From IMG/VR virus record IMGVR_UViG_3300032332_001510, positions 13,646-77,645 of that record: a DNA stretch of 64,000 nucleotides, one strand, 5' to 3'. This document shows positions 1,195 to 36,627 of this stretch, piece by piece (positions within the stretch are counted from its first letter, which is position 1; every line of letters begins with the position of its first letter). Below the pieces are notes generated by a model. That model saw nothing but the letters and a program-made list of their open reading frames with translations. It had not been told where the DNA came from and made no database searches. The position numbers and the translations under genes were made by a program. The stretch comes from a virus. Its lineage: Duplodnaviria > Caudoviricetes.

Positions 1195-1214
1195 TGATTC
1201 TCCAGTAATACTTT

Positions 1215-1243
1215 ATTATAGCGTATTTGGCTAGTAAAGTCAA
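1215..1243 (-). promoter_or_regulatory. sigma70-type promoter for DNA polymerase
   Basis: TTGACT-17 nt-TATAAT on the minus strand. Confidence 0.8.
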
Positions 1244-1244
1244 G

Positions 1245-2096: not shown

Positions 2097-2098
2097 CT

Positions 2099-3481
2099 CT
2101 ATGCGTTCCAAGGTAAATCAGTTGCGAGTTCTTGTGTTTGATTATCTTTTTTGCCCCCTGTTTTTTTAACAGGTTCTTTTTTAGATGGTTGATCAATACT
2201 TTGGGGGGATATTCTGAGTGTGTCCCAATCAATAGGGCAAGTAAATGCCATCTCTTTTCCCCCACGAATCTTTGTTGTTTCAAAACTAATTGCTTGTACG
2301 TCTTTTTCATGTGCTTCCATTACTAGCGCTATATCTGCTGCGTCTAAGATACCTTTAGCAAATCTTGCCTCACCACTAGCGTCAATTTGATATGGACTTA
2401 CTATTACTACTTCGTATTTTCTGGCTAAGTTTTTTAATTTCTTTGAAACCTCAATCTGGGGTTGCCAGTCATACTGACTATTGCCTTCTATAACAATCTG
2501 ATTAATATAATCTACTACTACAACTGCTAGTTTATCGCCAAATTTTGCTTTAGTTTTACCAATATGCAGGTCAATAGCCCCTAGGGTCAAGTCTCTGTCA
2601 TCAACAATAATCATCTGATTATCAGGCTTTAGTTTAAAATTTCTAATTAGTGTTTCTTCAAATTTAAATCTGTCACGATGTCGTAAAAACTCGTCTACTA
2701 AGCACTCTGCACCATCAAACATCTGTGATCTAACTTTAACTACTTGTAGCAATTCTTGATCTGTTAATCTATTTTGTTTTAAGTTTTGCAAGTTTACGTT
2801 AGCTAAGATTGCTAAGTTTCGTTGCATAGTCTCGTAAGCAGTCATCTCAATAGAAAAGTAAAGGCTACTATTTCCAGCCTGATACTGATTAACAAAAATA
2901 TTGCTACTAGTAATACTTTTACCGCTACCTCGTTTACCCCCAATAAGAATAAGTTCTTGCCTAGCAACGCCGCCAAGAACAGCGTCAAAAGTATTGTTAA
3001 GGCCAAGATACACACGTTCTTTTTCCAAATCTTCTGGATGTTGAAACATCAACATATCAGCCATTGTAAAAACTTTTTCGCTAGTATGTGTTTTTTCTTC
3101 AATTGTAAGCGCAATTGTAGCTAAATTTTCTTTTATTTCATTGGAGTCGTAAAGCGGCAGTTTGTCTACAAATTTATCCAGTAATTTTACTGTTTCATTT
3201 TGTGTATAACTATCAATAAGTGCATCAAGTGCTATTTCTGCACTTACATCTGGTATTTCAGTTAGCTTTAGCGTTGCTAGAGTTTTTGCTGCCGGACCTT
3301 CTCGCAGTGTAAGTTCTAAGTCATCAAAATTTGGTATAGCATTGTATTTTTCATAATGCTTATTGATAACACTGTACAAGGACGAGTAAGCCGGATCTAA
3401 AAATACCAGCTTCAGCTTTGCCCAAATATCCAGGCTTTGCTCTTGAAGCAGTTTATTTAAGACTACGGCTGAAACATCCAT
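2099..3481 (-). CDS. dnaB: DnaB-like replicative helicase
   Basis: Walker A GKRGSGKS, VVVDYIN Walker B, adjacent to primase. Confidence 0.9.
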   Translation of the reverse strand: MDVSAVVLNKLLQEQSLDIWAKLKLVFLDPAYSSLYSVINKHYEKYNAIPNFDDLELTLREGPAAKTLATLKLTEIPDVSAEIALDALIDSYTQNETVKLLDKFVDKLPLYDSNEIKENLATIALTIEEKTHTSEKVFTMADMLMFQHPEDLEKERVYLGLNNTFDAVLGGVARQELILIGGKRGSGKSITSSNIFVNQYQAGNSSLYFSIEMTAYETMQRNLAILANVNLQNLKQNRLTDQELLQVVKVRSQMFDGAECLVDEFLRHRDRFKFEETLIRNFKLKPDNQMIIVDDRDLTLGAIDLHIGKTKAKFGDKLAVVVVDYINQIVIEGNSQYDWQPQIEVSKKLKNLARKYEVVIVSPYQIDASGEARFAKGILDAADIALVMEAHEKDVQAISFETTKIRGGKEMAFTCPIDWDTLRISPQSIDQPSKKEPVKKTGGKKDNQTQELATDLPWNA

Positions 3482-3482
3482 G

Positions 3483-3782
3483 TTAACCTACCTTAGATTC
3501 ATTATCTATAAATACTTGGTCTACAATTTCTGTTACTTTATAAATAACTTGATCACGCAAGCGTTTAATGTCTTGCTGATAGCTGCTGCCTTTATCAAAT
3601 AGCATGCTTAATTGTTCATGCGTAATAAGCTGCTGTAAACCAAAATAGATATGATCATAGGCCATTGTAGAATCAGGCATTACTTTAACCTGAGCTAAAC
3701 GGCCATAGTTATGAACTGCTTGCTTTACTACTTCTTCCACAGTAAACGACTCTGAGTCGTGATAGGTAATTGTAACTTTCAT
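3483..3782 (-). CDS. hypothetical protein
   Basis: ORF in tight operon with helicase. Confidence 0.7.
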   Translation of the reverse strand: MKVTITYHDSESFTVEEVVKQAVHNYGRLAQVKVMPDSTMAYDHIYFGLQQLITHEQLSMLFDKGSSYQQDIKRLRDQVIYKVTEIVDQVFIDNESKVG

Positions 3783-3799
3783 TTACTGGTTTCCAAAGT

Positions 3800-3836
3800 A
3801 AAAAAGGCTGGGAGCCTATAAAAAACTCCCAGCCTT
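3800..3836 (-). terminator. intrinsic terminator after D5
   Basis: 11-bp stem AAGGCTGGGAG/CTCCCAGCCTT followed by a T run on the minus strand. Confidence 0.8.
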
Positions 3837-3851
3837 ATTGCTTAACAACTA

Positions 3852-4598
3852 TTAAGCAGCAGCTTTTGCTTCTGCTTTGGCTTTTTTATCAGCGCCTTTA
3901 TAGTCAGCAACGTTGATGCCACGACGGGTAAGTAGCGTACGAAGACCGCGCTCTGTTTTGTCAACTGCAGCTGCAATTTCTGCTACAGTCATACTGGCAA
4001 TACGCTCGCCAAGGGCTACAACAGGATCAACCTGATCTTTAGCGTGTGATTCGCGCTGTGCAGGAATCTTTGCAATTTGGCCTTTGCGTGTAAGGCTAAG
4101 TGCCTTGCCACGAACTGAAGCAACAGTTTTACCAAGAGCTTGAGCAATATCTTCGATAAACTGCCCGCGCTCAGCCATTTGTACAAATTTTGCTTCTTCG
4201 GCTTCTGTGTATGTGCGAGCAACTTCTACTTTTTCAGCAGGCTTTACTGAACCAGTTAGTTCAAGTGCAAGTAGTTTACCCTGAATTTGTTTAGCACTAA
4301 ATTTGCCACTAGCAAATGTTTCGGCGATTTGCTTATAAGTAAACACGCCAGCGTTATTAGTAACAAAGTTAAATAGTGAATGGCTTTCTTCATCGCTAAA
4401 TGCGCTGACCTTTTCTTTAGCCATACTAACAACTTCGCGATCAAGTTGACGTAGTTTAGCAGCTACACTACGGGTGGAGATTTCCAGCGATTCAGCAGCC
4501 GCTTCGACTTTTTGAACCGACACAGGGGATTGATTTCCAACGATTTTTAGTAGTTCTGCTACGGCTTCGTCAGACCATTTTTTAAGTTTTTCAGTCAT
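3852..4598 (-). CDS. D5: T5 D5-like DNA-binding transcription regulator
   Basis: Repeated HTH-like units (W.DE...L...VG..SPVS; SAKQIQGKLLALELT) as recalled for T5 D5; syntenic between ligase and helicase; start at MTEKLKKW. Confidence 0.75.
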   Translation of the reverse strand: MTEKLKKWSDEAVAELLKIVGNQSPVSVQKVEAAAESLEISTRSVAAKLRQLDREVVSMAKEKVSAFSDEESHSLFNFVTNNAGVFTYKQIAETFASGKFSAKQIQGKLLALELTGSVKPAEKVEVARTYTEAEEAKFVQMAERGQFIEDIAQALGKTVASVRGKALSLTRKGQIAKIPAQRESHAKDQVDPVVALGERIASMTVAEIAAAVDKTERGLRTLLTRRGINVADYKGADKKAKAEAKAAA

Positions 4599-5352
4599 AT
4601 GTTTTCTCTTGTAAAAATTGTGATAAGTTTTCGATGATTGTAATACCAAGCTGATCGGCTTTAGTACGTTTTGAGCTGCCTTTATTATCTTCATCAACTA
4701 AATAATTGGTTTGTTTGGTTACAGATTCAGTAACCTTAAATCCCATATTTTCTAGTGCTTTAGTGGCTTCCGCCTTAGTTTTAAATGAAGTTAGTTTACC
4801 AGTTATACAAACGGTTTTGCCGATTACATTGGCTACTGGTTTATTATCTGCCGTAAAGGAGAATGGCAAGAACTCCCTCATTTCCTGAAAATCTGTCTCT
4901 AGCCATGAGATTAGATTATTAGTAACTTTTTCTCCTAAACCTGCTTGTTTACACTGCTCCGGGGTAATCTCATCAATGTTGTTGACTACTTTTGCGAGTT
5001 TTTGTGCAGCTGTATTGCCTACTAGCGGAATACTAAAAGCAGGTAGGATGGTTGCTAAATCACTGTTGCGAGACTTATCAATTTCATCTAACAATTTTAC
5101 TGCAATTTTTTCACTACCTAAAGATTCAATAATTTGATCTAGTTCGAGATAGTAAATCTCAGTAACATCAGTTAGCTGAAGTTTCTCTAGTGTTTTAGCA
5201 CCCATACCCTTGATGCCCAGTGTTTTACAAAAATGCTCTAACTTTTTACCCAGCTGTGCGCTACAGGCTTGATTACGACAAAAAAGTTGGTCGTTAACAA
5301 GCTCTAGGGTATAGTCGCAACACGGACAAGTAGTTGGAATTTTGATTTTCAT
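4591..5352 (-). CDS. NAD-dependent DNA ligase, C-terminal subunit (Zn finger, HhH, BRCT)
   Basis: CPCC...C...C Zn finger, GIKGMGAKT HhH, VCITGKL BRCT. Confidence 0.88.
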   Translation of the reverse strand: MKIKIPTTCPCCDYTLELVNDQLFCRNQACSAQLGKKLEHFCKTLGIKGMGAKTLEKLQLTDVTEIYYLELDQIIESLGSEKIAVKLLDEIDKSRNSDLATILPAFSIPLVGNTAAQKLAKVVNNIDEITPEQCKQAGLGEKVTNNLISWLETDFQEMREFLPFSFTADNKPVANVIGKTVCITGKLTSFKTKAEATKALENMGFKVTESVTKQTNYLVDEDNKGSSKRTKADQLGITIIENLSQFLQEKTYD

Positions 5353-5418
5353 TGGGCGTTTTTCAAATTCAATAATGTATTATACAGTATAAGATGCTGT
5401 TTTGCAAGTCTAAATTTT

Positions 5419-6372
5419 CTATGCCTCTACCTTGTGCAATACGCAGGGAATAATTTCTCCTGCCCTGATAATAGCAACGGTATCTCCAATTTCCAGACCT
5501 AGGGCTTCAATGAATCCTGGGTTGTTAAGGGTAGCTCGGCTTACCATAGCATCACCTACTAGCACAGGCTCAAGGATTGCTACTGGCGTTACTTTACCAG
5601 ACTTACCCACTTGCCACTCAACATCCAGCAATTTAGTTTCTACATGGGCAGCACGCTCTTTGCGAGCATAGGCACCACGAGGATGTTTACTAGTATAGCC
5701 CAACTCTTCAAACTGGTGATTGTTATTGAGTCGAAAGACTACACCATCTGTGGGATAGATTTTTTCTAAGTCAGTTTCTTGAACCGTATTAAAACCAAAC
5801 TGCTTAAGCATACGCATATCTGCATCATAGGTTTGACCAACAAATGGCTGAACACCGTATGCAAAGAAAGTAATTGCACGAGTGGAGAATTCACTAGTAT
5901 CCTTAAGGTTAAGGGCACCAGCAGCATAGTTACGAGCATTGGCAATATGACTTGGAGCTACAATTTCACCAGTAACTTGTAGTACGCCAGTATACCTAAT
6001 AAAGTGCGGAACTAGACTAGTGCTACTAAGCAGCTTGTCAGTAATTACTTGACCCTCTACTCCATCACCACGAGTCAATGCTTGCACTAGCTGACCGTCT
6101 ACATATAGCAGGCTGATAGCAGCGCCGTCTAGTTTAACGCTCATGGTAACATCGCCCATGCCTGCTAAAGGATTAGGCTTGCCTTCATCCTCATAGTGCT
6201 TTTGCAGAGAATACATAGGATAGTAGTGCTTGCACTTAGTGCCTACAGCTTGTGCGCCTACGGCTGAATACTTTGCAGTTTCAGCTAGGCGATCAAACTG
6301 TTCGTCACTAATAATAGGAAAGCCTGTGTAGTAGGCTTGACTTGCTGCATCTAAATACTGTTTAATACTCAT
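5419..6372 (-). CDS. ligA: NAD-dependent DNA ligase, adenylation/OB subunit
   Basis: KLDG adenylation motif, LTRGDG, RNYAAG, WQVGKSGKVTPV, RAGEIIP. Confidence 0.92.
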   Translation of the reverse strand: MSIKQYLDAASQAYYTGFPIISDEQFDRLAETAKYSAVGAQAVGTKCKHYYPMYSLQKHYEDEGKPNPLAGMGDVTMSVKLDGAAISLLYVDGQLVQALTRGDGVEGQVITDKLLSSTSLVPHFIRYTGVLQVTGEIVAPSHIANARNYAAGALNLKDTSEFSTRAITFFAYGVQPFVGQTYDADMRMLKQFGFNTVQETDLEKIYPTDGVVFRLNNNHQFEELGYTSKHPRGAYARKERAAHVETKLLDVEWQVGKSGKVTPVAILEPVLVGDAMVSRATLNNPGFIEALGLEIGDTVAIIRAGEIIPCVLHKVEA

Positions 6373-7001
6373 AGACCTTCCACAAATTCACACAAAAGTT
6401 CATTGTGACGACCACTATGCCAGCCTTCTAGTTCATCAAGATCATACCACCACTCTTCGCTTTCTGGATGACAGCCAATCAAACCTACACGATTTTGATA
6501 AACTGCCATTGCATCGCCATTGTCATAGGTAGCAACAATATCAGTAAAGGCTAAGTTACCAACAAAAGCACAACCATCGTAGAAATACATATCTTCTTCC
6601 TGACCATTCCAGTTTACGCGAGCAATGGTAGGCTCATCAGTAGTTACATCTGCATCTAGTTGCGTAATATACTGTACTGGCTCAATGCCGTGAAGAATGT
6701 CAAAATAGTAGCTACCTGCCCAGTATGCTCCCATACAAATGCCTAAGTATCTGCCACCATCGCTAACAAAGTTTCTAACTGCGTCAACGTGATCCGTATC
6801 AAAGATTTCGTCAAACTGGTCACTATCGCCAATGCCCCCAGGAAATGCTAGTACGTCTACGGTTGACAAAAATTTAGGGTCAAGGTCCTCAATGCCAAAT
6901 AACTTTACTTTAAACTTGTGCTCTAGTGCAGCTTCCATAGCTAGTGCACACTCAACTTCACACACAGGATCATGAACAAAAATAGCAACAGTTTCTTTCA
7001 T
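6369..7001 (-). CDS. BPL_N / class I glutamine amidotransferase-like protein
   Basis: FPGGIGD, GGRYLGICMGAY, GCHPE motifs. Confidence 0.7.
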   Translation of the reverse strand: MKETVAIFVHDPVCEVECALAMEAALEHKFKVKLFGIEDLDPKFLSTVDVLAFPGGIGDSDQFDEIFDTDHVDAVRNFVSDGGRYLGICMGAYWAGSYYFDILHGIEPVQYITQLDADVTTDEPTIARVNWNGQEEDMYFYDGCAFVGNLAFTDIVATYDNGDAMAVYQNRVGLIGCHPESEEWWYDLDELEGWHSGRHNELLCEFVEGL

Positions 7002-7051
7002 AATATTTCCTCAGTAGATATAATATATTATAGCAGATTAAATCAGTAAAA

Positions 7052-7339
7052 TCAAGTAGATTTTTCTAGTAACTGGCGTGCATAGGTTTCAATAATTTCA
7101 TGACCCTCAGCAGTACTACAAATATCAAATAGTCCGTCTAGCAAACTATAAATGTTTTGTAGTGATGCAGGAATACTTACGCCCTCACGACTAGGAATCC
7201 ACTCACCCTCATAGCTTAGAAAATATTTTCTAAGTTGTAGATAAGTAATTTCCTTAAAATCATTAACTACTAGTCTAATCTGAAAACCTTTGTCTAGATT
7301 TTCCTCTATTAGTTTTTCATATAGTATATTTGAGTCCAT
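7052..7339 (-). CDS. PC4-like ssDNA-binding protein
   Basis: YLQLRKYF...GEWIPSREGVSIP is a PC4 signature; T5 has a homolog in this position. Confidence 0.75.
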   Translation of the reverse strand: MDSNILYEKLIEENLDKGFQIRLVVNDFKEITYLQLRKYFLSYEGEWIPSREGVSIPASLQNIYSLLDGLFDICSTAEGHEIIETYARQLLEKST

Positions 7340-7962
7340 TAGACTTTAACCCCTAGTTCGCGTAAATGTTTAAGGCTTGCTAATTCACACGCAGGTTGAT
7401 ACGCGCTTTGCAACCAACGTTCACTAAGAAGCCACACTCTGTAAATCCAACCATAGTCTGGGTGTGTTTGCTCTGCTTGTATTTTACACATGGAATCGTA
7501 CCTGGCACTATATACCACTTCGCCTACAGCAAATTTATCCTGCATTGCGCCTTCAGGAATTAACTCAGGTTTAAAATAGTCTGGGCTGCTTTTACGAACA
7601 GGAACATTATACCGCTCTAATACTTGCTTAATAAGTTGCGTACCGCGGTAAGTATTTTGACTAATTTCACTTATGGTTTCTCCGCTAAGATAGCTTTGAA
7701 TTATAAATTGTACTTCGTCTAGTGTAACAGGCTTACCGCGTTTTTCAGCCCTGCGTTTAGCAGTCTTTTCTTTGCGATCTTTGTATGTTTGAATGATCTG
7801 ATCAAGCCTGGTAGTATTATAGCTCATGCCCAAGATTTGACAAGCATCTTTTTTTGTAATAGGTTTAACGCCCTGCTCTTTGGGTTCAAGCAGATCAATG
7901 ACTCGCTCAATATTAGCATCAGTCATACGTTCTTGTTCAAGCTCTGTGCGTTTACGAGCCAT
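7339..7962 (-). CDS. T5-like conserved hypothetical DNA-binding protein
   Basis: ITKKDACQILGMSYNTTRL HTH-like segment; syntenic. Confidence 0.6.
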   Translation of the reverse strand: MARKRTELEQERMTDANIERVIDLLEPKEQGVKPITKKDACQILGMSYNTTRLDQIIQTYKDRKEKTAKRRAEKRGKPVTLDEVQFIIQSYLSGETISEISQNTYRGTQLIKQVLERYNVPVRKSSPDYFKPELIPEGAMQDKFAVGEVVYSARYDSMCKIQAEQTHPDYGWIYRVWLLSERWLQSAYQPACELASLKHLRELGVKV

Positions 7963-8006
7963 AATTACTCCACAAATAAGAAAAGGCAGCACTAGGCTGC
8001 CTGTTT

Positions 8007-8366
8007 TTATGCTTTAAGTACACTCAAAAAGTAAACTGCTGCTTTGCCAGTCAACTTGCTTAGAATATCGTCATCTACTGGACCACCTTTAGCTTCAATT
8101 GCCGCTTTAAGATCAGCAATGCTAGACTCTTTGCTTACACGCTTAGGTGCATCACCAGCAGGCTTTTTATCACCAGCGGGCTTAGCTGTGGCGTCTTTTT
8201 TAACATAAACACCTGCTTGAACCAAAACCATACGAACGCCGTTAGGCGAAGCTTCGATTTCTTCTGCAATGTCTTTGATAATTTCAGTACTGGATTCAGG
8301 CGTTGGCTCTGCCTCCTGATACATTTTAATTACATTAGCTTTGAGTTCGTCATTCCATTGTGTCAT
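8007..8366 (-). CDS. T5 D3-like DNA-binding protein
   Basis: W.DELK..VI.MY...EPTPE.S.EI...IAEE; same overall layout as the A2 family. Confidence 0.55.
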   Translation of the reverse strand: MTQWNDELKANVIKMYQEAEPTPESSTEIIKDIAEEIEASPNGVRMVLVQAGVYVKKDATAKPAGDKKPAGDAPKRVSKESSIADLKAAIEAKGGPVDDDILSKLTGKAAVYFLSVLKA

Positions 8367-8375
8367 TATATTTCC

Positions 8376-8654
8376 TTAGATAAGTTCGGTAATTACATTG
8401 GTCATTTTACTGGGAGTAAACTGACGATAGTTATGTTTTAGATCGTGTTTAGCTACAAGCTGCATTGTTTCTTCGTGTTGACGATTTTTTAATTCCCGCA
8501 TTTCACGAGTAAATGCTTCAAATTCTACTTCAGGCAACTCACTAACATCAATACCTGCTACAAGTTGTGTAGGTTCTTGAGTGACAACTAGAGCACGCTC
8601 GCTTTGATCACCATTGGCTTTTGTGTACATAAATTGCATAAACTTCATTTGCAT
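8376..8654 (-). CDS. hypothetical protein
   Basis: ORF with upstream sigma70 promoter (about 8677-8705) and RBS. Confidence 0.65.
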   Translation of the reverse strand: MQMKFMQFMYTKANGDQSERALVVTQEPTQLVAGIDVSELPEVEFEAFTREMRELKNRQHEETMQLVAKHDLKHNYRQFTPSKMTNVITELI

Positions 8655-8708
8655 TCCTTTATTGCGACAGAAATAATATTATATCAATACTTGACTAAAG
8701 ATTCAAGT

Positions 8709-8966
8709 TTATTTTTCTCTGACCGCTTTTGTAATGCCTAAAAATGCACCACTAAAAAGCGGCGGAAATACTAGCAACCAAACTACTGCTGGGGCCAGTA
8801 CTGTGTTTACTATAAAAAAGATAAACAAACTTAGTAGTGGTGATCTAGTAAAATCGTTATCTATTCCATCCTTTCTAGCGTGTGCAATAATAGGCCAAAA
8901 AAGCTCATAAATAAGCGTTAGTGATGTTGCTAAGCAAAATATTGCGTAGTATTCAAATGCCCCCAT
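8709..8966 (-). CDS. small membrane protein
   Basis: two hydrophobic segments. Confidence 0.65.
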   Translation of the reverse strand: MGAFEYYAIFCLATSLTLIYELFWPIIAHARKDGIDNDFTRSPLLSLFIFFIVNTVLAPAVVWLLVFPPLFSGAFLGITKAVREK

Positions 8967-9333
8967 GCAACCTATCCCCCAACTTAAAGCTAACTTTTAA
9001 ATCGCCTAGAGTTTTAGGGTTAAAGGTTGAACGTAAACTAGCTAAAGTTTGATCAGCTATTTTTTGATTTGAACTAAAAATATCGTGTGGACAGCTACCA
9101 CATACTTGTCGCATTAGCTGAGCAATCTTAATCTTTGTTTTATTCCAGGGGTTAGTTTTAGGAGTTTTTCTGCGATAAGTAATGTTTTTTATAGCTAACT
9201 CAATTTGTTTTGCATTGCCAGGATTTTTTTGTAATGCCCGCAACAATTTACGCTCACGATTTGCTTTCCAAGTTTGTTTACTCTTGTAAAGATCGTACTG
9301 CGCTTGTTTACCCTTACTAGACGATTTCGCCAT
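8953..9333 (-). CDS. basic hypothetical protein
   Basis: ORF overlapping neighbours in operon fashion. Confidence 0.65.
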   Translation of the reverse strand: MAKSSSKGKQAQYDLYKSKQTWKANRERKLLRALQKNPGNAKQIELAIKNITYRRKTPKTNPWNKTKIKIAQLMRQVCGSCPHDIFSSNQKIADQTLASLRSTFNPKTLGDLKVSFKLGDRLHGGI

Positions 9334-9592
9334 AATTATATAGTCCAGTTATTATATAGTAATCATTATTGGTGTGTTTTGTAATCCTAACACAACCTGC
9401 TTCTTCTAAGTACTCTAAAAAGTTAAATGCACTTGTATAAGTTTTTAAATTAATGCCATATTTTAGCAATACTTGATTGACTTCAAACAGGTAGTCAAGA
9501 GTAATATCTTGACTACCAGTACCTAGTTCAAATAACAGTTCCTTGATAGGATTATCAATCTTCAAAGATAATGGACTCTTCGTGGTCGTCAT
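9317..9592 (-). CDS. hypothetical protein (start uncertain)
   Basis: ORF track. Confidence 0.55.
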   Translation of the reverse strand: MTTTKSPLSLKIDNPIKELLFELGTGSQDITLDYLFEVNQVLLKYGINLKTYTSAFNFLEYLEEAGCVRITKHTNNDYYIITGLYNYGEIV

Positions 9593-9866
9593 TTTCTAGA
9601 TTTGCTTTTAGTTCTTCGGCTTCTTCAAGTTGATGGTGAATACCATAGCAACGTTGAAGTGCTTCAATAAATGCAGGAACAGATTCAATGTCAATAGGAA
9701 CGCTACGCTCACAACCATCAAAAACCCTGACTTCGTTAAGACCGCCTGGATTGCTACCAAACTCTACACCATAGTAAAAGTAGTAATCTGGCTCGCTAGA
9801 GGTATAAAACATACCGTCATCATCAAGTACTGTGTCTCGTTCTTGTGATCCAAAATAAATTTTCAT
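9555..9866 (-). CDS. acidic hypothetical protein
   Basis: ORF, start MKIYFG, promoter upstream near 9906-9934. Confidence 0.6.
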   Translation of the reverse strand: MKIYFGSQERDTVLDDDGMFYTSSEPDYYFYYGVEFGSNPGGLNEVRVFDGCERSVPIDIESVPAFIEALQRCYGIHHQLEEAEELKANLENDDHEESIIFED

Positions 9867-9951
9867 GTGCTTGGTCCTTTTTAAAAACAATTTTCGAGAA
9901 CAAATATTATAGCAAATTAAATTGTGTTTTTCAAGAAAATAATTTTTGTGG

Positions 9952-10025
9952 TGGCAGGGATACTAGGGCTCGAACCTAGAATAACGAAATCAAAATCCGT
10001 GGTGTTACCATTACACTATATCCCA
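9952..10025 (-). tRNA. tRNA-Gln(UUG)
   Basis: Cloverleaf, GGTTCGAGCC T arm, anticodon TTG, encoded CCA. Confidence 0.9.
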
Positions 10026-10030
10026 ACATT

Positions 10031-10105
10031 TGGCTCCCCAGCGTGGGATCGAACCACGGACCAACAGATTAACAGTCTGCTGCTCTACCGCTGAGCTACT
10101 AGGGA
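10031..10105 (-). tRNA. tRNA-Asn(GUU)
   Basis: TAGCTCAGCGGTAGAGC D arm, CAGACTGTTAATCTG anticodon arm, CCA. Confidence 0.95.
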
Positions 10106-10109
10106 ATTT

Positions 10110-10186
<77 letters not shown>

Positions 10187-10238
10187 AGAATAAAAAGTCC
10201 CCAGCAGTGCTCATCAGCACACATCTGGGGACACAAAC

Positions 10239-10832
10239 TTAATCGTCGTTGCTGTCGTCTAGTTCCATAAATACGTCTACTAAAACATCTCGGTATGGTT
10301 GATCAACCATGTGCAAGTCTAGCAAGTAAGTATCTAGGTGACAATTGCGTAATAGCTGAGCATGATACATAAATTGACCATAAGCTTCTAAGTCTTGACT
10401 AATACTTTGATTGGCATAGTCTTCAATAGCTTGTGCAACCATGTCTAGTAGTGGTTCTGGCATTTGAGATTTAGTAGCGACTCTAACTAATTTTAGGGCT
10501 TTGCCTTCACGATCACGCATAATCTGATTACGTTTAGCTTCTGCCCAAGTCTGGCCCCCGTCACCGCCCCATAAATCCCAAGCTACTCGGCCTTTGCTAG
10601 GAAATCCCTCTTCACCACTGTTAAATCCTGTGGCACGCTTGTCAACTTCATGACGACTAAAAAAGCTATGCATTCGCAATACAACACTAGCACTTAGTGG
10701 CTCACGATTTTTAAGTTGATTGGCACGAGCCAAGCCTACCAGCGTACCACCCGGGTTGCCTTCCTCATGCCACACTAATGCACGTTTAGCCGCACTTGCC
10801 ATGCCGCTAGTGGGAGTATAAGTTTCTGCCAT
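10239..10832 (-). CDS. hypothetical protein carrying a domain often seen in phage head-maturation proteins
   Basis: RM.SFFSRHEVDK...F..GE.G.PS.GR.AW.LWGGD.G..W motif recognised from environmental phage proteins. Confidence 0.55.
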   Translation of the reverse strand: MAETYTPTSGMASAAKRALVWHEEGNPGGTLVGLARANQLKNREPLSASVVLRMHSFFSRHEVDKRATGFNSGEEGFPSKGRVAWDLWGGDGGQTWAEAKRNQIMRDREGKALKLVRVATKSQMPEPLLDMVAQAIEDYANQSISQDLEAYGQFMYHAQLLRNCHLDTYLLDLHMVDQPYRDVLVDVFMELDDSNDD

Positions 10833-10840
10833 AATAACCT

Positions 10841-11404
10841 CTATGGATTAGCTAGGAAAAATGCAAAGGCAAATCCCAGCGGTGTCATTGATCGTAATTC
10901 TTTAGTCTTTTCCGATTTACCACCCAACTTCATTATCCACGAATTAGGGTCAGGCTCGACTGGACACTTAGGCAAATCACGATTAAACTTGCCCCATAAT
11001 CCAGTTTTCTTGGTATAGGCATCACCAAACCAGTGTGGCTGAAAATACCAGGGTTCACCTAATTCAGGACGCAATTTATGCAGTCTGCCAACTGGATTTT
11101 CCAATGCCCAAAATTGTGGGTTGTAGTAGTCTACCATTTGCAAAACTTTGTCTACTAGCTTTAAGCTTTGGTCAGTTCTGCCGTCTAGGTCTTTTTGTTT
11201 CCAGTATTGTGCACCACTGCCTGCAAAGTCTGTACATGGCGGAGCAGCTAAGATGCCGTGTATTTGATTGGGTAAATCTCTGGCTGATAGCTCTAGTATG
11301 TCAATACCGTATTTAATATCTACTTGTAGAACATTGTAACCGGCTTCTTTGTAATATTTAGGCCAATTACCGCTGTAGTCGAACAATGACAAAATCGTTT
11401 TCAT
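10841..11404 (-). CDS. short C5 cytosine DNA methyltransferase-like protein
   Basis: LSLFDYSG (motif I), APPCTDF (catalytic PC), ALENP (motif VI). Confidence 0.75.
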   Translation of the reverse strand: MKTILSLFDYSGNWPKYYKEAGYNVLQVDIKYGIDILELSARDLPNQIHGILAAPPCTDFAGSGAQYWKQKDLDGRTDQSLKLVDKVLQMVDYYNPQFWALENPVGRLHKLRPELGEPWYFQPHWFGDAYTKKTGLWGKFNRDLPKCPVEPDPNSWIMKLGGKSEKTKELRSMTPLGFAFAFFLANP

Positions 11405-11546
11405 AATATAGTCTCTGCATTACGTCAAGTCGTTGTTCGTCTGTATAGACTTGCCAGTCTGTGATTTCTTGCACTGTTCTGTGACAACCTACACATTGCT
11501 GTAGTTTAGGGTCAATTCGGCAAATTTGCTGACAAGGAGTCATCAT
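11367..11546 (-). CDS. DUF1289-like small Cys protein
   Basis: TPCQQICRID...CVGCHRT..EI..W pattern. Confidence 0.7.
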   Translation of the reverse strand: MMTPCQQICRIDPKLQQCVGCHRTVQEITDWQVYTDEQRLDVMQRLYYENDFVIVRLQR

Positions 11547-12117
11547 GTTCTTTACGCTTAGCCTCACAAAGTGTTTCTACACGATTGCTTACTTCTTCAC
11601 TGTGTAACCACAAGTCTTTGTTTTCTAGCAAGCTGTCAATTTCCTTGCTAGTTAAAAAATCTTTGTAAATGTGTTGTAGGAATTGTCTAGACCACTCACG
11701 TTCAAAAACTGCTTGATCATAGATTTCACCACCCTTACCAAAGATTCCACCACTGTAGTTGTGAAACATAAATAAACTATGTGGAGTTACCTCAAACACA
11801 TCGGCACATAAAAAGATCATTGTAGCAGCACTCATACAGCTGCCTTCAACACTACATACTACAGTAGCCGGTGTTTCAGCAAGTACGCGCATAAATTGTA
11901 TTGCAGTGTTTAGGTCACCACCGCAACTATTGATATAAATTTTTACTACGTCTTGGTCACTAGCACTACGAATAGTATTAAACCATTCAATGTAATCCTC
12001 AGGACCAGTAATTAAACCACTTAAGTAAAATTCGTAAAGTGCACTAGTACATTTACGAAACCCACGACTAATACCAGTGTCGAGGACAAAATCATCATCT
12101 GTTGCGTTTTTAGTCAT
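11512..12117 (-). CDS. clpP: ClpP-like protease subunit
   Basis: IYINSCGG, CMSAAT (catalytic Ser), FMFHNYSGG (catalytic His). Confidence 0.82.
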   Translation of the reverse strand: MTKNATDDDFVLDTGISRGFRKCTSALYEFYLSGLITGPEDYIEWFNTIRSASDQDVVKIYINSCGGDLNTAIQFMRVLAETPATVVCSVEGSCMSAATMIFLCADVFEVTPHSLFMFHNYSGGIFGKGGEIYDQAVFEREWSRQFLQHIYKDFLTSKEIDSLLENKDLWLHSEEVSNRVETLCEAKRKEHDDSLSANLPN

Positions 12118-12130
12118 AGGAGTATTGTAT

Positions 12131-12430
12131 AAAAAAGCCCCCCTTGGTTACAAGGCGGGGGCAGACCTCGGCACTAGCTTAAGCGGCTAGGGCAAATACC
12201 TCATCGTTGGCATTTATATAGTTTGCTTCTTTTGCGGAGATCGCCTACCGAGTTGTCCACTTGCATACTTATCACACTGTCGAAACCATGACTGGCCCAT
12301 CAAAAGCACACCACACTTACAGAGGTAACACGTACCATGGCTATGCATCGCCTTAGTGTGCTTTTGGTGGACCAGGTGGGAGTCGAACCCACGTCCAGCG
12401 CGCCTTTCGGCTCGTTTCATACAACCATAT
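12131..12430 (-). ncRNA. ssrA: circularly permuted (two-piece) tmRNA: acceptor piece about 12430-12365, intervening segment, coding piece 12298 to about 12131; tag (A)ANDEVFALAA
   Basis: T arm + CTGGTCCACCA lies upstream of the 5' end GGGCCAGTCATGGTTTCGACAG. Acceptor stem GGGCCAG/CTGGTCC has G3-U. Tag ORF is at 12211-12179. Confidence 0.92.
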
Positions 12431-12513
12431 AAAAATACTCTAGTTTGGATTCAAACCTTGTCCTAGTATTGTCTACTTGCGTGTCTCACCACACCGACCA
12501 GAATATTTTTATA

Positions 12514-12587
12514 TGGTGCCCCTTGACAGAATCGAACTGCCAATTGATGATTACAAATCAACTGTTATACCATTTAACTAAAAGGGC
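12514..12587 (-). tRNA. tRNA-Thr(UGU)
   Basis: GCCCTTT/AGGGGC acceptor, TTGATTTGTAATCAT anticodon arm, CCA. Confidence 0.92.
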
Positions 12588-18277: not shown

Positions 18278-18369
18278 TGGCAGAGAGTGTGGGATTCGAA
18301 CCCACGGTACACATCACTGCATACGACGGTTTAGCAAACCGCTGCCTTCGGCCACTCAGCCAACTCTCT
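18278..18369 (-). tRNA. tRNA-Ser(GCU)
   Basis: Long variable arm, CGGTTTGCTAAACCG anticodon arm, GCCA end. Confidence 0.92.
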
Positions 18370-31402: not shown

Positions 31403-31720
31403 TTGAAATATACTAAAGAAATTACTGACCGTTTAGTTGAACAATACAAAACAGGCACTCAAGTCCAAAAAATTGCGCAGGAGCTGGAGGTGCCGGAGCG
31501 TAGTGTAATTGCCAAGCTCAGCAGCTTGGGTGTTTACCAGAAAAAGCAGTACTTAAACAAACGCGGTGAAGTGCCTACAAAGAAGTCAGAGCACATAGAA
31601 AACATTGCTAAACTGCTCAAAATGGATGTAGAACTCCTAGAAAGTCTTGAAAAGGTCAATAAAGGTATCCTACAGGTCCTAGAAACCAAATTAAGTCACG
31701 AAAACTGTCAAAATCCATAA
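31403..31720 (+). CDS. T5 A2-like DNA-binding protein (paralog 1)
   Basis: RSVIAKLSSLGVYQKK...KK.EH...IA..L...ESLEK; AAGGAG RBS, TTG start. Confidence 0.6.
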   Translation: MKYTKEITDRLVEQYKTGTQVQKIAQELEVPERSVIAKLSSLGVYQKKQYLNKRGEVPTKKSEHIENIAKLLKMDVELLESLEKVNKGILQVLETKLSHENCQNP

Positions 31721-31734
31721 TCTGACCCTAAAGT

Positions 31735-31767
31735 GCCCCACGCAGCGCAAGTTGTGTGGGGCTTTTT
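31735..31767 (+). terminator. intrinsic terminator
   Basis: GCCCCAC...GTGGGGC + TTTTT. Confidence 0.75.
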
Positions 31768-31816
31768 ATTGGGTGACAACTTGCTGTGGTTTAGGGTCAG
31801 GCTTTAGAATTTGCAC

Positions 31817-31951
31817 TTGACAACATTGATTTTACACTGTATAATATTGGCGCAGCAGACTTAGTCAAAAAACAGACTACCTATTAAAATAGACTTTGTA
31901 CTTAAACAGACTAGTGAGTAAAACTATACAGCTATATAGTTTTACTCACTA
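31817..31951 (+). repeat. promoter followed by four YAGACT motifs at exact 17-bp period and a 17-bp-arm inverted repeat
   Basis: TTGACA-17-TATAAT at 31817-31845; motifs at 31856, 31873, 31890, 31907; inverted repeat 31912-31951. Confidence 0.75.
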
Positions 31952-32010
31952 ATAAAATTTTAGTAATGTAAAAAATTGTTGCAATTTAGGGTCTGGTGTT
32001 TATTTCAGGC

Positions 32011-32577
32011 AAAACAAAACCCCGCTAAAGCCGTCGCCTTGCGGGGTTTTGAACTCTTACGAGTTTTTATGCGATATTGACTTAGTTTTCACAGAGATCG
32101 TCTGTTACGGTAACCTATCATTTCGCGGGGGAGTTTGCCATTATATGGTCTAGAATGATATTTTGGCCAACTCGGTTCAGCCTATATTTTAACCAGCGGG
32201 CCTAACCGCTGGACAGCACTGCTCTAGTTGCACACCAGATTGAGGTTGCTTGGATACCGTCTAAGTTATTTACAAGTTCTAGACAACTTGGTAAGTTTGG
32301 GTATTTACAACCACCTGGGCTCCCAGAGGTAGCGAACCTTAGCAGTCCAGGATTTTAATTTTAGCTAAGGGCTGTGGCTCGGCTCTAACATAGATTCCCC
32401 ACAATTAAGACGCTGCACCAAATGCGCGCCGCTGTCACCCATTCTTTCGACAGTCGTCAGTACTTGTACTTGGCACTACAGGTTGCTAGCTATACATTGG
32501 CTTGCTGGCGGGATAGTGGTACGTTGACTGGTATCTGCGCTTTGTCCTCTCGGATAAGCTCTTTCCTAACTGTCTAT
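32011..32577 (-). ncRNA. putative large structured non-coding RNA (about 565 nt)
   Basis: TTGAAA-17-TATAAT promoter (-10 at 32589-32584), strong terminator at 32050-32011, no long ORF on this strand, many hairpins including GNRA tetraloops. Confidence 0.55.
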
Positions 32578-32637
32578 AATAATATTATACACTGTTGGGG
32601 AGAAGATTTCAAGACAAGATTTCTTCTCCCCGGTAGC

Positions 32638-32949
32638 TTAGGCCCCAAACTTCTCCACAAGCAGCTCCAGACCGCTCATGTTGCACTTCTCAAGGCTGGC
32701 AATTGCTTGAGGGTCAATATCAAACTTCGCTGCAATCTTGTTGATCAGGTCCATTTTAGTAACCCGGCCCTGACCCTTAGCCGCGGTTTTGGCCACATAC
32801 ACGCCTTCGCGTGAAAGCTTGGCCACAATCGACCGCACCGACTTGCCCATCTCTTCAGCAATCATTTCCACAGAATTGCCCGTGGTGTAAAGTCCGATAA
32901 CGGTAGCGGTCTGCTCGGCGGTGTAGTTTACAGTTTTGTCAGTCATCAT
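32638..32949 (-). CDS. T5 A2-like DNA-binding protein (paralog 2)
   Basis: KTVNYT.EQT...GKSVRSIVAKLSREGVY...ASLEK. Confidence 0.7.
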   Translation of the reverse strand: MMTDKTVNYTAEQTATVIGLYTTGNSVEMIAEEMGKSVRSIVAKLSREGVYVAKTAAKGQGRVTKMDLINKIAAKFDIDPQAIASLEKCNMSGLELLVEKFGA

Positions 32950-33261
32950 ATGTCCTTTGTGTTTCGGTTTCTGCGCTGTTGAAGATTCTATTATACGCTG
33001 TTCAGAAGGGAATATCAAGATCAAAATTACTGGGGTCTGGCTCGGTTTGTGGATACTGGGGATAATCGAAATGTTCGTTCCGCCAATCCTGCCACCATTC
33101 TTCTTGATCACTTTGAAAGTCATTCATTGTTTGGTTTCCCTCATCAATCTATAAATAATATTATACAGACTCTAACCGGCCACTTCAACACTAAATTTAT
33201 ACACGTGGCACACCCAAGATTTTACACTAGTTTTCGCACTGGCGCGGGGGCTCCGCCCCCT

Positions 33262-33627: not shown

Positions 33628-33954
33628 TTAAATGGGTTTTGAATTTGCCAATGCGTCGAAAATTGCTTTTAGGGCAGATTTATTGCATTTGGTCAGGGAT
33701 TCAATATCATTTTCTGGCAAACGCAGGATTGCGCCAATTGCATCAGCGTGCGCGTCTTTTTTAACGACCGGCTCGCCAGTTTTTGTTTTATAGGTTTTCT
33801 TTTCGTAAACCCCCTCGCGCGAGAGTTTAGCAACAATTGAGCGAACCGATTTGCCCATTTGAACGGCCAATTCTTCAACGGTAAAACCATTTTTGTAATC
33901 GGCAATCAGGTTAAGGGTTTGCTCAGGGGTATAGTTTACAGTCTTTTCAGCCAT
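33628..33954 (-). CDS. T5 A2-like DNA-binding protein (paralog 3)
   Basis: Near-identical core to 38149-38478. Confidence 0.72.
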   Translation of the reverse strand: MAEKTVNYTPEQTLNLIADYKNGFTVEELAVQMGKSVRSIVAKLSREGVYEKKTYKTKTGEPVVKKDAHADAIGAILRLPENDIESLTKCNKSALKAIFDALANSKPI

Positions 33955-34357: not shown

Positions 34358-35059
34358 TTAGATTGCCTTGTAAAAATCTTTGACTTGGAATTGCTTCCAG
34401 TTATGTGCAATGATATTGTCACGCCAATTGCGACGTTTTAGAATGTTTACCAGAATTGGCAATTCAAAGTCTTGTGCATCCTCAAGCGCAGTATGTGGCT
34501 CTTCAACAAATTGACCATTCAAAAACGCAAAAACAGATTCGGCAGTAGTTTTAATGGACATATTGCCATGCTTAGTCGGAGCATTGAATAGATGATTTTG
34601 CAATGCAAATTGACGATATGCTTTTTTGCAGATATTGCCAATAGCGGCTTGCCAAAGACAAAACGATTCTGCAAAACCCGACAAATCAATGCCGGTATTA
34701 GCACATTTTTGTTTATCAAAAGCCAGATTGTAAGCGGTTAATGTAGGATTGTATTTGCCAATGGCTTTTTGAATCCACGCATTGATTGCGGCAACAGAAG
34801 CCATTTGCCGCGAACCTGAATCAAGCATTGCAAAGTATTGAGTTTGCTTTTTGCTTGCGTATTCACGCGACCACATTTCCGAATTGGGTTTAGTTTTGTC
34901 ATAGAATAGATCCATTGCATCAAAATGATTGCGAACCAATACCGCGCATTTTGCATAGATGCGACCGTTACGATCGCAAATAACAATTGCAAAATCTGCA
35001 ACGGTATCGTTGCAAGTGGTTTCAGTGTCGAGAATTGCGAAAAACTGCTTTTTAGCCAC
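34358..35059 (-). CDS. DEDDh 3'-5' exonuclease
   Basis: LDTETT, AYNLAFD, HTALEDA. Confidence 0.82.
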   Translation of the reverse strand: MAKKQFFAILDTETTCNDTVADFAIVICDRNGRIYAKCAVLVRNHFDAMDLFYDKTKPNSEMWSREYASKKQTQYFAMLDSGSRQMASVAAINAWIQKAIGKYNPTLTAYNLAFDKQKCANTGIDLSGFAESFCLWQAAIGNICKKAYRQFALQNHLFNAPTKHGNMSIKTTAESVFAFLNGQFVEEPHTALEDAQDFELPILVNILKRRNWRDNIIAHNWKQFQVKDFYKAI

Positions 35060-35985: not shown

Positions 35986-36489
35986 TTAGTGTCCTTGTTT
36001 GCTTGGAATATATTCACCGCGAATATTGAAATAATCGCATACCGCTTTAAGATATTGCACGTTATCCTCATAGAAAACAACGTCATCCATCATTGCCAAG
36101 TTAATATTAGCAGTTTGAAAGCATTTAATCAAACCGTTAATTTTTAGCGTTGAGCCAGATTGAAAATCGTCGCTAGTACGCGAGATAACATAATCAGGAA
36201 CCCCTAGTACGTCACGCATAAATTGCCAATCTGGATCATTCATTACACGCGCAGTAGCGATAATCGTGTAACATTCAGCGTCCATGCAATCGCGTTTATA
36301 TTTATCAGCCAATGGCAATAAGCCATCCAGCATTGCCAAGTGCTGATTATCTCGCCAAAAGCCAATATCAATGCGCTCACCTGCGTCGGTGAGAACAGTG
36401 CGATAACGGTGGCTTGAATCCACGATAGTGCCGTCCATGTCATAAATTGCTACTCGCTTAATCATTTTGTTTGCCTGCGTTGTGTCCAT
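35986..36489 (-). CDS. dmp: HAD-family deoxynucleoside 5'-monophosphatase (T5 Dmp-like)
   Basis: YDMDGTIVDSSHR, LLPL, IIATARVM, FYEDN match the T5 Dmp pattern as recalled. Confidence 0.75.
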   Translation of the reverse strand: MDTTQANKMIKRVAIYDMDGTIVDSSHRYRTVLTDAGERIDIGFWRDNQHLAMLDGLLPLADKYKRDCMDAECYTIIATARVMNDPDWQFMRDVLGVPDYVISRTSDDFQSGSTLKINGLIKCFQTANINLAMMDDVVFYEDNVQYLKAVCDYFNIRGEYIPSKQGH

Positions 36490-36532
36490 GTAGAGAATTA
36501 TACACGAAAAATCGGGTTGTGCCAGGAAGTGC

Positions 36533-36627
36533 AAAAATACAACAGTAGGGGAAACCCCTATTGACACGCCCCAAAATTATGTGGTATAATTTTGGCGCCG
36601 CAGGTGTTGTAAAAATACAACACCTGC
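36533..36627. promoter_or_regulatory. repeated palindrome/promoter element
   Basis: AAAAATACAACA, TAGGGG-AAA-CCCCTA, TTGACA-18-TATAAT (36561-36590), GGCGCC, 12-bp hairpin at 36600-36627. Confidence 0.85.

Follow-up and report, generated by a model that had tools for sequence, protein, structure and literature searches.

We investigated a 64,000-nucleotide (nt) stretch of viral DNA (hereafter, the window; positions 13,646 to 77,645 of IMG/VR record IMGVR_UViG_3300032332_001510) and found that its minus strand, from about 32577 to 32011, very probably carries a real gene for a structured RNA of ~565 nt belonging to a new, uncatalogued family. The gene is bounded by a promoter and a terminator, holds no conserved open reading frame (ORF) and has a fold that covaries in ten close homologs, which supports the proposal of an initial annotation, made from the sequence alone, that a large structured non-coding RNA lies here. 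The family has a new core fold, and its only known element is a hammerhead ribozyme of atypical form, present in relatives. Judging from sequence comparison, the family consists of modular RNAs of 0.5–0.9 kb that are kept by dozens of related phages and share a module of ~70–95 nt, here called module 1. As an overall explanation, we lean toward a stand-alone gene for a ~565-nt structured RNA of a new family that serves as a trans-acting binding platform, a preference held with restrained confidence.

Transcription unit and conserved fold

The initial annotation had named a consensus promoter (TTGAAA-17-TATAAT) and a terminator at the end of the unit without specifying the strand; both were found, on the minus strand. 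The parts of the RNA gene are as follows.

32011..32577, minus strand: non-coding RNA, ~565 nt, without ORF; 115 consensus pairs, 13 with compensatory changes; relatives covered by RNA-library contigs
32584..32612, minus strand: sigma-70 promoter; −35 box TTGAAA (32612-32607), 17-nt spacer, −10 box TATAAT (32589-32584); 11 of 12 consensus matches
32598..32632, minus strand: terminator hairpin of the upstream A2-like gene, GGGGAGAAGA...UCUUCUCCCC, read from the sequence; its descending arm bears the −35 box of the RNA promoter
32441..32577, minus strand: 5' domain, beginning UAGACAGUUAGGAAAG; nested helices CAGU/ACUG, GUAC/GUAC and CACUAU/GUAGUG within 32530-32458
32569..32574 with 32212..32217, minus strand: predicted long-range helix of GACAGU with GCUGUC, closing RNA nt 7-369
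32369..32440, minus strand: module 1; helices P1-P3 and a pseudoknot; covariance model R1, 69.6 bits, E 2e-16
32225..32313, minus strand: central domain; helix of UGGUUGU..AUACC with GGUGUGCAACUA; 98.5% paired
32294-32270, minus strand: hairpin UUACCAAGUU/AACUUGUAA (CAAGUU-GUCUAGA-AACUUG), enclosed by the central helix; 100% paired
32194..32211, minus strand: hairpin CAGCGG-UUAGGC-CCGCUG; 100% paired; closing C-G changed to U-A in 4 of 11 sequences
32052..32065, minus strand: GNRA-type hairpin AACUC-GUAA-GAGUU, just 5' of the terminator; C-G changed to G-C in 3 of 11 sequences
32010..32051, minus strand: intrinsic terminator AAAACCCCGC...GCGGGGUUUUGUUUUG (AAAACCCCGC..GCGGGG then UUUUGUUUUG); G+C-rich helix of 16 pairs, 97.7% paired (RNAalifold)

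The transcript start near 32577 is predicted from the promoter position, and RNA nt numbers count from window position 32580, ~3 nt before it. The window RNA and its ten close homologs (together, the window clade) were compared throughout. In 11 of 11 clade members, the promoter lies inside the upstream gene's terminator hairpin; all of them have the same −10 box and the same first ~20 transcribed bases (UAGACAGUUAGGAAAG), both of which can be recognized in distant members of the family. The terminator helix, which includes compensatory changes and is conserved in all clade members, was missed by a simple scan because of its long loop. A similar terminator lies 500–900 nt downstream of module 1 in many distant family loci. 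The stretch thus has the conserved promoter and intrinsic terminator of an independent sigma-70 transcription unit, the ends of which are sequence predictions.

Homologs were gathered from viral and metagenome contigs by a search with the upstream protein and by a clade-specific DNA pattern. The ten full or near-full homologs were 76–84% identical to the window RNA, while the flanking coding genes were 67–88% identical across the same clade; the non-coding stretch is therefore under comparable constraint. The initial annotation had suggested collecting homologs and looking for covariation, and this was done on the 11 sequences. RNAalifold gave a consensus fold of 115 pairs, in which 97.9% of cells formed standard pairs, compared with 32–42% when the 3' partners were slid by 1–3 columns. 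Compensatory double changes occurred in 13 pairs, compared with 1–3 for slid partners, and 500 column shuffles yielded no covariation score as high as the observed one.

Folding energy alone does not decide the strand, because the plus strand folds nearly as well (z = −2.9) as the minus strand (minimum free energy −177 kcal/mol, z = −3.0; 0 of 100 shuffles as stable); covariation does. Paired cells in the clade included 97 G-U but 10 A-C combinations, a count that is biased toward the strand on which the fold was predicted but favors a minus-strand RNA over a DNA cruciform or a plus-strand RNA. These figures also bear on conservation at the DNA level, in which the stretch would be a counterpart of the untranslated repeats in the left terminal repeat of phage T5 (an injection stop signal or protein-binding repeats). 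Conserved untranslated repeat regions occur near A2 in T5-like phages (bioRxiv 10.1101/866236; T5 annotation), and the RNA gene adjoins AGTCT(A/G)TTTT repeats with a 17-nt period and GACCCTAA/TTAGGGTC inverted repeats. We nevertheless regard such a signal as very improbable: in the window, the repeats lie outside the RNA; module 1 is absent from the T5 terminal repeat (nothing above 8.2 bits in T5 bases 1-12000 with model R1, filters off); compensatory changes and the G-U to A-C ratio mark the helices; and the stretch is bracketed by promoter and terminator, with a hammerhead and transfer RNAs (tRNAs) in the unit of relatives and cover by RNA-library contigs.

As for coding capacity, the annotation had claimed that the RNA strand has no ORF of 60 amino acids (aa) or more, and the claim holds at a stricter limit, with no minus-strand ORF of at least 30 aa within 32011-32577. 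Sense ORFs reach at most 25 aa in the window and 29–47 aa in the homologs, and the longest one differs in place and frame in each of the 11 sequences. A messenger RNA for one or more small peptides is hardly credible. The 5'-end AGGAAAG resembles a ribosome-binding site, and a 22-codon ORF follows the equivalent GGGAAGG in locus L007; however, the window has no start codon at a suitable distance, the counterpart of the L007 ORF in L005 is truncated to 3 codons, and differences among homologs are indels that are not multiples of three and pair-compensating changes. The annotation also described the region as more GC-balanced than its flanks, which is true relative to adjacent intergenic DNA (0.44–0.48 vs. 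0.36–0.39) but not relative to the flanking genes.

Individual helices differ in how they vary. In the 5' domain, CAGU/ACUG, GUAC/GUAC and CACUAU/GUAGUG show compensatory change in 2 of 4, 1 of 4 and 0 of 6 pairs, respectively, and all are 100% paired. The long-range helix (nt 7-12 with 364-369) is also 100% paired and varies by one-sided changes only (G-C/G-U, U-G/U-A); its sequences are compatible with pairing but do not prove it. The two helices of the central domain contain one compensatory pair (U-A to G-C). Among the stems listed in the annotation, CCAGCGG/CCGCUGG, CAAGUU/AACUUG, CUGUC/GACAG and AACUC-GUAA-GAGUU all recur in the consensus fold, three of the four with compensatory changes. 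The others fared less well. The stem UCC-GAGA-GGA is present in the window and replaced by a different hairpin, GUC-AAC-GAC, in other members, and UAUCAUU/AAUGAUA falls within the 3' third (about 32190-32070), which aligns poorly even inside the clade and yields no common fold. CC-GCAA-GG belongs to the terminator stem and is not a separate GNRA hairpin. CCUUAGC/GCUAAGG, directly after module 1 and followed by a helix CCUGG/CCAGG, does exist but is imperfect in some members; in four (L002, L087, L090 and L091), its loop holds a 60–70-nt cassette of AGUCU(A/G)UUUU repeats.

The loop of the central hairpin, GUCUAGA, contains the self-complementary UCUAGA (32284-32279) and is invariant except for C to U in two members, a change that keeps self-pairing through G-U. 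With the other conserved self-complementary loops, GCUAGC and GGCC, it could speak for an "ornate" RNA resembling ROOL or GOLLD, in which kissing loops would assemble a multimeric particle and module 1 would be a structural hub. ROOL and GOLLD form homo-oligomeric complexes (PMC12286853). The size of 0.5–0.9 kb, the phage origin, the tRNAs in or beside the transcripts of relatives and the variable modular periphery agree with this idea. Conversely, palindromes are common by chance in A+U-rich loops, and the RNA has no sequence or model similarity to ROOL or GOLLD; we consider self-assembly improbable.

An index search found parts of the stretch in six RNA libraries, and contigs from four of them (four studies, from lakes or fresh water) were compared. 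The contigs cover 32081-32591 at 80–99% identity, and so represent relatives; some span the clade-specific central domain, and one has the repeat cassette. Evidence on expression was taken only from the contig-covered parts of the stretch in these four libraries. In run X16, word depth reached 242–397 over 32152-32293 and at most 7 on the flanking genes, which weakly hints that the RNA is abundant in lake libraries, given that depth is per contig and DNA carry-over is possible.

The annotation's suggestion that the RNA may be new was upheld by Rfam 15: none of its 4227 models, ROOL and GOLLD included, matches the RNA, whether at gathering score over the whole window or at E up to 10 over 31750-32700. 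The best hits in the region were chance microRNA or plastid hairpins, outside or at the edges of the RNA and far below gathering scores. Searches of 15 related loci and L007 (E up to 5) likewise returned no family for the RNA, GOLLD included. Bacterial RNase P RNA, 6S RNA, signal recognition particle RNA and known riboswitches and ribozymes gave no Rfam 15 match, and ARAGORN and Rfam found no tRNA, transfer-messenger RNA (tmRNA) or tRNA-like element in 32011-32577. A literature search found no description of this RNA, although literature coverage is incomplete and this is not proof of absence. Two resemblances found no model support and were rejected: an RNase P-like reading, based on GGAAAG and GACAGU/CUGUC recalling CR-I and P2, and a tRNA- or tmRNA-TLD-like module. 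The traits that we take to be TLD-like are an arm of 5 bp that directly continues the closing stem, a linker of 5 nt and a GG-containing loop kissing another loop.

Module 1 and its relatives

Distant loci share a single 44-nt stretch with the window RNA, and exact patterns built from it matched 47 and then 70 stretches in IMG/VR. Module 1 is a pseudoknotted three-way junction, 72 nt long in the window (32440-32369), and occurs in about 60 viral contigs. Its consensus is GGGY-GAC-A-G-CGG-[variable hairpin]-C-GUC-UUAAU-UGUGG-NNAAN-[optional hairpin]-N-CCG-AG-CCACA-GCCC, and its elements in the window are as follows.

32440-32437 with 32372-32369, minus strand: P1, GGGU with GCCC
32436-32434 with 32411-32409, minus strand: P2, GAC with GUC, plus the pair G32432-C32412; bears the variable hairpin
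32428-32413, minus strand: variable hairpin
32408-32404, minus strand: junction UUAAU
32403-32399 with 32377-32373, minus strand: P3, UGUGG with CCACA; contiguous with P1
32398-32378, minus strand: P3 loop, with optional hairpin UCUA/UAGA
32431-32429 with 32382-32380, minus strand: pseudoknot, CGG (P2 internal loop) with CCG (P3 loop)

Covariance model R1 was built on P1–P3 with the pseudoknot left out. Among the loci examined, it gave 62 strong hits of 61–89 bits. The window hit (32443-32366, minus strand) retains all invariant bases, and its score of 69.6 bits (E 2e-16) is a consistency check, as the window was in the training alignment. Over the window and the whole 77.6-kb record, R1 found this one copy of module 1 and no second module. 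Across 57 distinct sequences, 99.8% of cells were paired (slid controls, 36–49%), compensatory change affected 10 of 16 pairs and none of 500 shuffles scored as high. The pseudoknot, absent from the model, still pairs in 98.8% of cells and covaries (CGG:CCG; CGA:UCG in L070; AGG:CUC/U in second copies). P2 appears as GAC/GUC, GUC/GAC, GGAA/UUCC, GAAC/GUUC or GGAC/GUUC. The variable hairpin is free in sequence and length, and a hairpin could be read in each of roughly a dozen members inspected.

The module appears, on sequence evidence, to be confined to phages and nearly missing from prokaryotes. When 185,579 prokaryote genomes were scanned for the exact pattern, one hit emerged, on a 2.9-kb contig of a metagenome-assembled genome that also carries a hammerhead and is probably a phage fragment. 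In a distant-mode blastn comparison, 31750-32650 matched none of 50,697 cultured-phage records. A profile search with the clade alignment found only the promoter with the 5' start, module 1 and the terminator shared with other loci, and it detected no counterpart of the clade's middle and 3' domains there. Separately, we observed two different module-1 RNAs with different downstream domains (L037 and L050) on one 100-kb contig, IMGVR_UViG_3300043436_004120.

A −10-like hexamer, usually accompanied by a −35-like TTGN, precedes the module's first G by 9–22 nt in 38 of 54 distinct contexts, which normally makes the module the earliest part of the RNA to be transcribed. One exception is the window clade, with no promoter at the module, which sits behind the 137-nt 5' domain; the window-type promoter and the opening UAGACAGUYRGGAARG also occur ~200 nt upstream of the module in other members. 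A cis-acting 5' element, either a put-like antitermination RNA or a 5' stabilizer protecting the transcript, would suit a module that emerges first and transcripts that are long and rich in hairpins and tRNAs that could pause or stop polymerase. We give this possibility little credence: in the window clade, 137 nt of RNA precede the module, and the strong conserved terminator and the convergent next gene leave nothing downstream to read into. Moreover, stabilizers need no invariant loops, and the tandem second copy is internal.

That second copy, module 2, is a diverged paralog of module 1 located 10–220 nt downstream in the same transcript. R1 recovers it weakly, at 23–28 bits, in four transcripts.

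L028:9241-9318: module 2, weak R1 hit
L027:253-328: module 2, weak R1 hit
L022:6685-6757: module 2, weak R1 hit
L070:2093-2172: module 2, weak R1 hit

Module 2 shares P1, the CUUAAU junction and the layout with module 1, whereas its P3 is different and covarying. Its pseudoknot reaches 6 bp (AAGACC:GGUCUU in L007, GAGACC:GGUCUC in L070), and its signature (GUUAU...AUAAC or UAAAC...GUUU) is found in most members outside the window clade.

Most of these members also carry a hammerhead ribozyme: CUGAUGAG lies 100–650 nt past the module, CGAAAC 23 nt on and GGGUC↓AGGA (arrow, cleavage site) 86 nt on. The core is canonical with type I topology (CUGAUGA - stem II - GAAA - stem III - GUC↓A) and is present in at least 28 relatives outside the window clade, for example at the following positions.

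L007:4818-4926: hammerhead
L028:9383-9492: hammerhead
L018:737-847: hammerhead
About 25 other loci: hammerhead

Stem II is 97% paired with covariation in 4 of 5 pairs, and stem III 89% paired with covariation in 4 of 8. Stem III holds a structured insert of ~55 nt, whose conserved loop reads UUCCCAA or ACUUCAAUAC; stem I has 3–6 bp, of which 3 solid pairs covary as CCU/AGG, CCA/UGG and CCUU/AAGG. Because of the insert and the short stem I, Rfam scores the L007 hammerhead at 17 bits as Hammerhead_3, against a threshold of 48.5. The window RNA and its ten close homologs have no hammerhead core, Rfam gives no hammerhead hit in the window, and CTGATGAG is absent from the window RNA and its three closest relatives (L024, L043 and L057). 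The window clade thus keeps the 5' domain, module 1 and terminator, lacks module 2 and the hammerhead, and has central and 3' domains of its own.

Four family transcripts contain a tRNA.

L018:663-735: tRNA, CCA end abutting hammerhead stem I
L030:10815-10886: tRNA, CCA end abutting hammerhead stem I
L027:338-409: tRNA
L051:102-173: tRNA

At the corresponding spot in L012 and L044, module 2 ends GCCC-ACCA.

Modules 1 and 2 might themselves be a new class of self-cleaving ribozyme, making the transcript a multi-ribozyme processing unit in which cleavage, in the window clade, would split the 5' domain from the rest. New ribozyme classes cluster near hammerheads in phage-like DNA, which is how pistol, hatchet and twister-sister came to light, and here an extremely conserved, pseudoknotted core stands, in most relatives, 100–400 nt upstream of a type I hammerhead that covaries and belongs to the same transcript. 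Among the RNA-library contigs from relatives in the window clade, some from two studies have their 5' end at the module's first G or 6 nt upstream of it, where there is no promoter; this would be a weak sign of cleavage, but other RNA contigs cross the module's 5' edge, and contig ends may be assembly breaks. No Rfam ribozyme family matches, and no cleavage site can be named. On this evidence, a ribozyme seems unlikely, though it deserves attention.

Phage and locus

The window belongs to a 77.6-kb IMG/VR virus record with an estimated completeness of 73%. Its large terminase has ~50% identity to the terminases of T5-like Vibrio phages (genomes of 113–118 kb), and its source, as far as sequence likeness indicates, is an uncultured T5-like freshwater (lake) phage. 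The small genes flanking the RNA match PHROGs annotated as D5-like or DNA-binding; together with the terminase, they place the RNA in the early or pre-early region of a T5-like phage. The left terminal repeat of T5 contains A2 and dmp, both pre-early genes, as well as conserved untranslated repeat regions (bioRxiv 10.1101/866236; T5 annotation).

32638..33123, minus strand: upstream neighbor, A2-like/D5-like DNA-binding protein, 161 aa; PHROG 1725 and 323; co-oriented with the RNA
31403-31720, plus strand: paralogous A2-like/D5-like DNA-binding protein
33628-33954, minus strand: paralogous A2-like/D5-like DNA-binding protein
32422-32814, plus strand: 130-aa ORF, antisense to the A2-like gene and overlapping the 5' end of the RNA
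34358-35059 and 35986-36567, minus strand: two mutually paralogous genes, 2–4 kb upstream of the RNA gene
31817-31845, plus strand: perfect TTGACA-17-TATAAT promoter, facing the 3' end of the RNA
about 31860-31910, plus strand: four ACAGACU-type repeats, 17-nt period, after that promoter
31908-31955, plus strand: 17-bp palindromic hairpin with U-rich tail, after the repeats
31720-31730, 31790-31800 and 31985-31993: copies of the dispersed element GACCCTAAA / TTTAGGGTC
12088-12457, minus strand: two-piece (permuted) tmRNA, betaproteobacterial type, tag ANDEVFALAA (ARAGORN)
9952-10186, 12514-12587 and 18278-18369, minus strand: among the tRNA regions

Of 61 distinct family loci, 54 have an A2-like gene immediately upstream in the same orientation, 35 have a convergent 263-aa gene downstream and 33 have paired Dmp/PNK-like paralogs 2–4 kb upstream. 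Around the window RNA gene, the three A2-like/D5-like proteins are paralogous. In the window's pair of upstream paralogs, the 193-aa protein, possibly Dmp-like, has a match to PHROG 415 (polynucleotide kinase), and the 233-aa protein matches PHROG 20187 (function unassigned in PHROG). The 130-aa antisense ORF recurs in 37 loci because it mirrors the conserved A2-like gene, and is very probably not a gene.

Several further features were observed around the locus. The plus-strand interval 31817-31960 could encode a small RNA of ~110 nt or be an operator array. AGTCT(A/G)TTTT, the opposite-strand form of the ACAGACU-type repeat, is the sequence inserted in the RNA hairpin loop of the four cassette-bearing members, and also lies just upstream of the second promoter's −35 in L007-type loci. 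Copies of GACCCTAAA / TTTAGGGTC flank the terminator of the plus-strand gene and sit upstream of the plus-strand promoter; in relatives, with 2–4 copies per locus, an 8-mer of this element equals the 3' strand of hammerhead stem III with the cleavage site (UUAGGGUC↓AGG). Elsewhere, the window encodes five tRNAs (Gln, Asn, Met, Thr and Ser) and the two-piece tmRNA, whose beta type suggests a betaproteobacterial host.

Proposed role and known systems

We propose that host sigma-70 RNA polymerase would transcribe the RNA from the promoter inside the terminator of the A2-like gene and that transcription would stop at the intrinsic terminator. The RNA would then act in trans, early in infection, with module 1 as a high-affinity binding platform for a host or phage protein and the remaining domains as clade-specific scaffold or cargo. 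The window clade would be a variant without the hammerhead and with the module placed internally, after the 137-nt 5' domain. The invariant unpaired bases (UUAAU junction, A-G bulge and NNAA...CCGAG loop), together with insertions confined to two outer sites, suggest a precise three-dimensional recognition site; with the promoter-proximal, early position and the clade-variable periphery, they are why we favor a trans-acting platform. That module 1 is specifically a platform for a protein in a trans-acting early-infection RNA we put forward tentatively, as a suggestion with somewhat less in its favor than against it.

Several points weigh against this proposal. The binding partner is hypothetical. 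Extreme invariance, a pseudoknot, tandem copies and a nearby hammerhead also typify ribozymes and riboswitch aptamers. The "early" timing is drawn from the gene neighborhood and an analogy with T5, and the expression evidence consists of assembled contigs of relatives rather than reads of the window phage. In addition, the module may not fold constitutively in the window clade: AAGCGC and CGACUGUC of the 5' domain are able to pair with GCGUCUU and GACAGCG of module 1, and RNAalifold picked these pairings; in nearest-neighbor free energy, with the pseudoknot uncounted, they are preferred to the family fold by 6–17 kcal/mol. The alternative pairings show no covariation and may be either a real two-state arrangement or an artefact of energy folding. 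As the clade retains all invariant module bases, we assume that the module fold forms.

A two-state fold would suit a ligand-binding aptamer, acting either as an allosteric switch of folding or hammerhead cleavage or as a small-molecule "sponge", for example for a nucleotide signal of host immunity. The small three-way junction with arms docked by a loop-loop pseudoknot, the invariant UUAAU junction, the tandem copies and the position at the 5' end fit such an aptamer, and the two upstream segments of the window clade could supply the switch. However, no ORF or terminator stands directly downstream to be controlled, bacterial genomes lack the module (in contrast to nearly every known riboswitch class), no compensatory changes back the alternative pairings, and there is no candidate ligand. 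We regard an aptamer as rather unlikely. Taken more broadly, the idea of a new fold in modules 1 and 2, catalytic or ligand-binding (either a self-cleaving ribozyme class or a bulk early aptamer that soaks up or senses a host signal), is doubtful but has a real chance. If it were true, the whole RNA would be a ribozyme-processed "toolkit" (module, module, hammerhead, and tRNA or cargo), with the window as a hammerhead-less form.

Bacteria and phages have few large non-coding RNAs with intricate folds, and OLE, ROOL, GOLLD and raiA each opened new biology. The position among early genes of T5-like phages suggests that host takeover or defense evasion includes a step based on RNA, and the module is small enough for direct biochemistry and structure determination. 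As the type I hammerhead with a 55-nt insert in stem III shows, current models overlook phage ribozymes.

The RNA resembles several known systems in part. Like ROOL (RF03087) and GOLLD (RF01998), it is several hundred nt long with many helices, comes from phages or prophages and has tRNAs in or beside the transcripts of relatives. Unlike them, it gives no covariance-model match up to E 10, the hosts of the window-type module are T5-like lake phages, and its pseudoknotted three-way junction, GGGYGAC-AGCGG...CUUAAUUGUGG...CCGAGCCACAGCCC, has no equivalent in ROOL or GOLLD. The type I hammerhead (RF00163, clan CL00010) is present with covarying stems I–III in most relatives of the family, but not in the window clade. 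Three-way-junction aptamers with docked arms, of the purine-riboswitch type, are a lead: they share the closing P1, two arms joined loop to loop, an invariant junction, a length of 70–95 nt and tandem copies; they differ in that there is no sequence or model similarity, and in that the present module has no expression platform or regulated ORF and is phage-only. The put RNAs of HK022 are likewise structured RNAs made first from a strong phage promoter, as module 1 is in most family members. Their fold, two stem-loops with no known pseudoknot, is different, and in the window the module is internal with no genes downstream. Finally, the left terminal repeat of T5 (iss region) is also a conserved non-coding stretch amid A2/dmp-type early genes, with direct and inverted repeats nearby. 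It has been described in terms of DNA signals and lacks the module, whereas here the constraint acts on RNA pairs.

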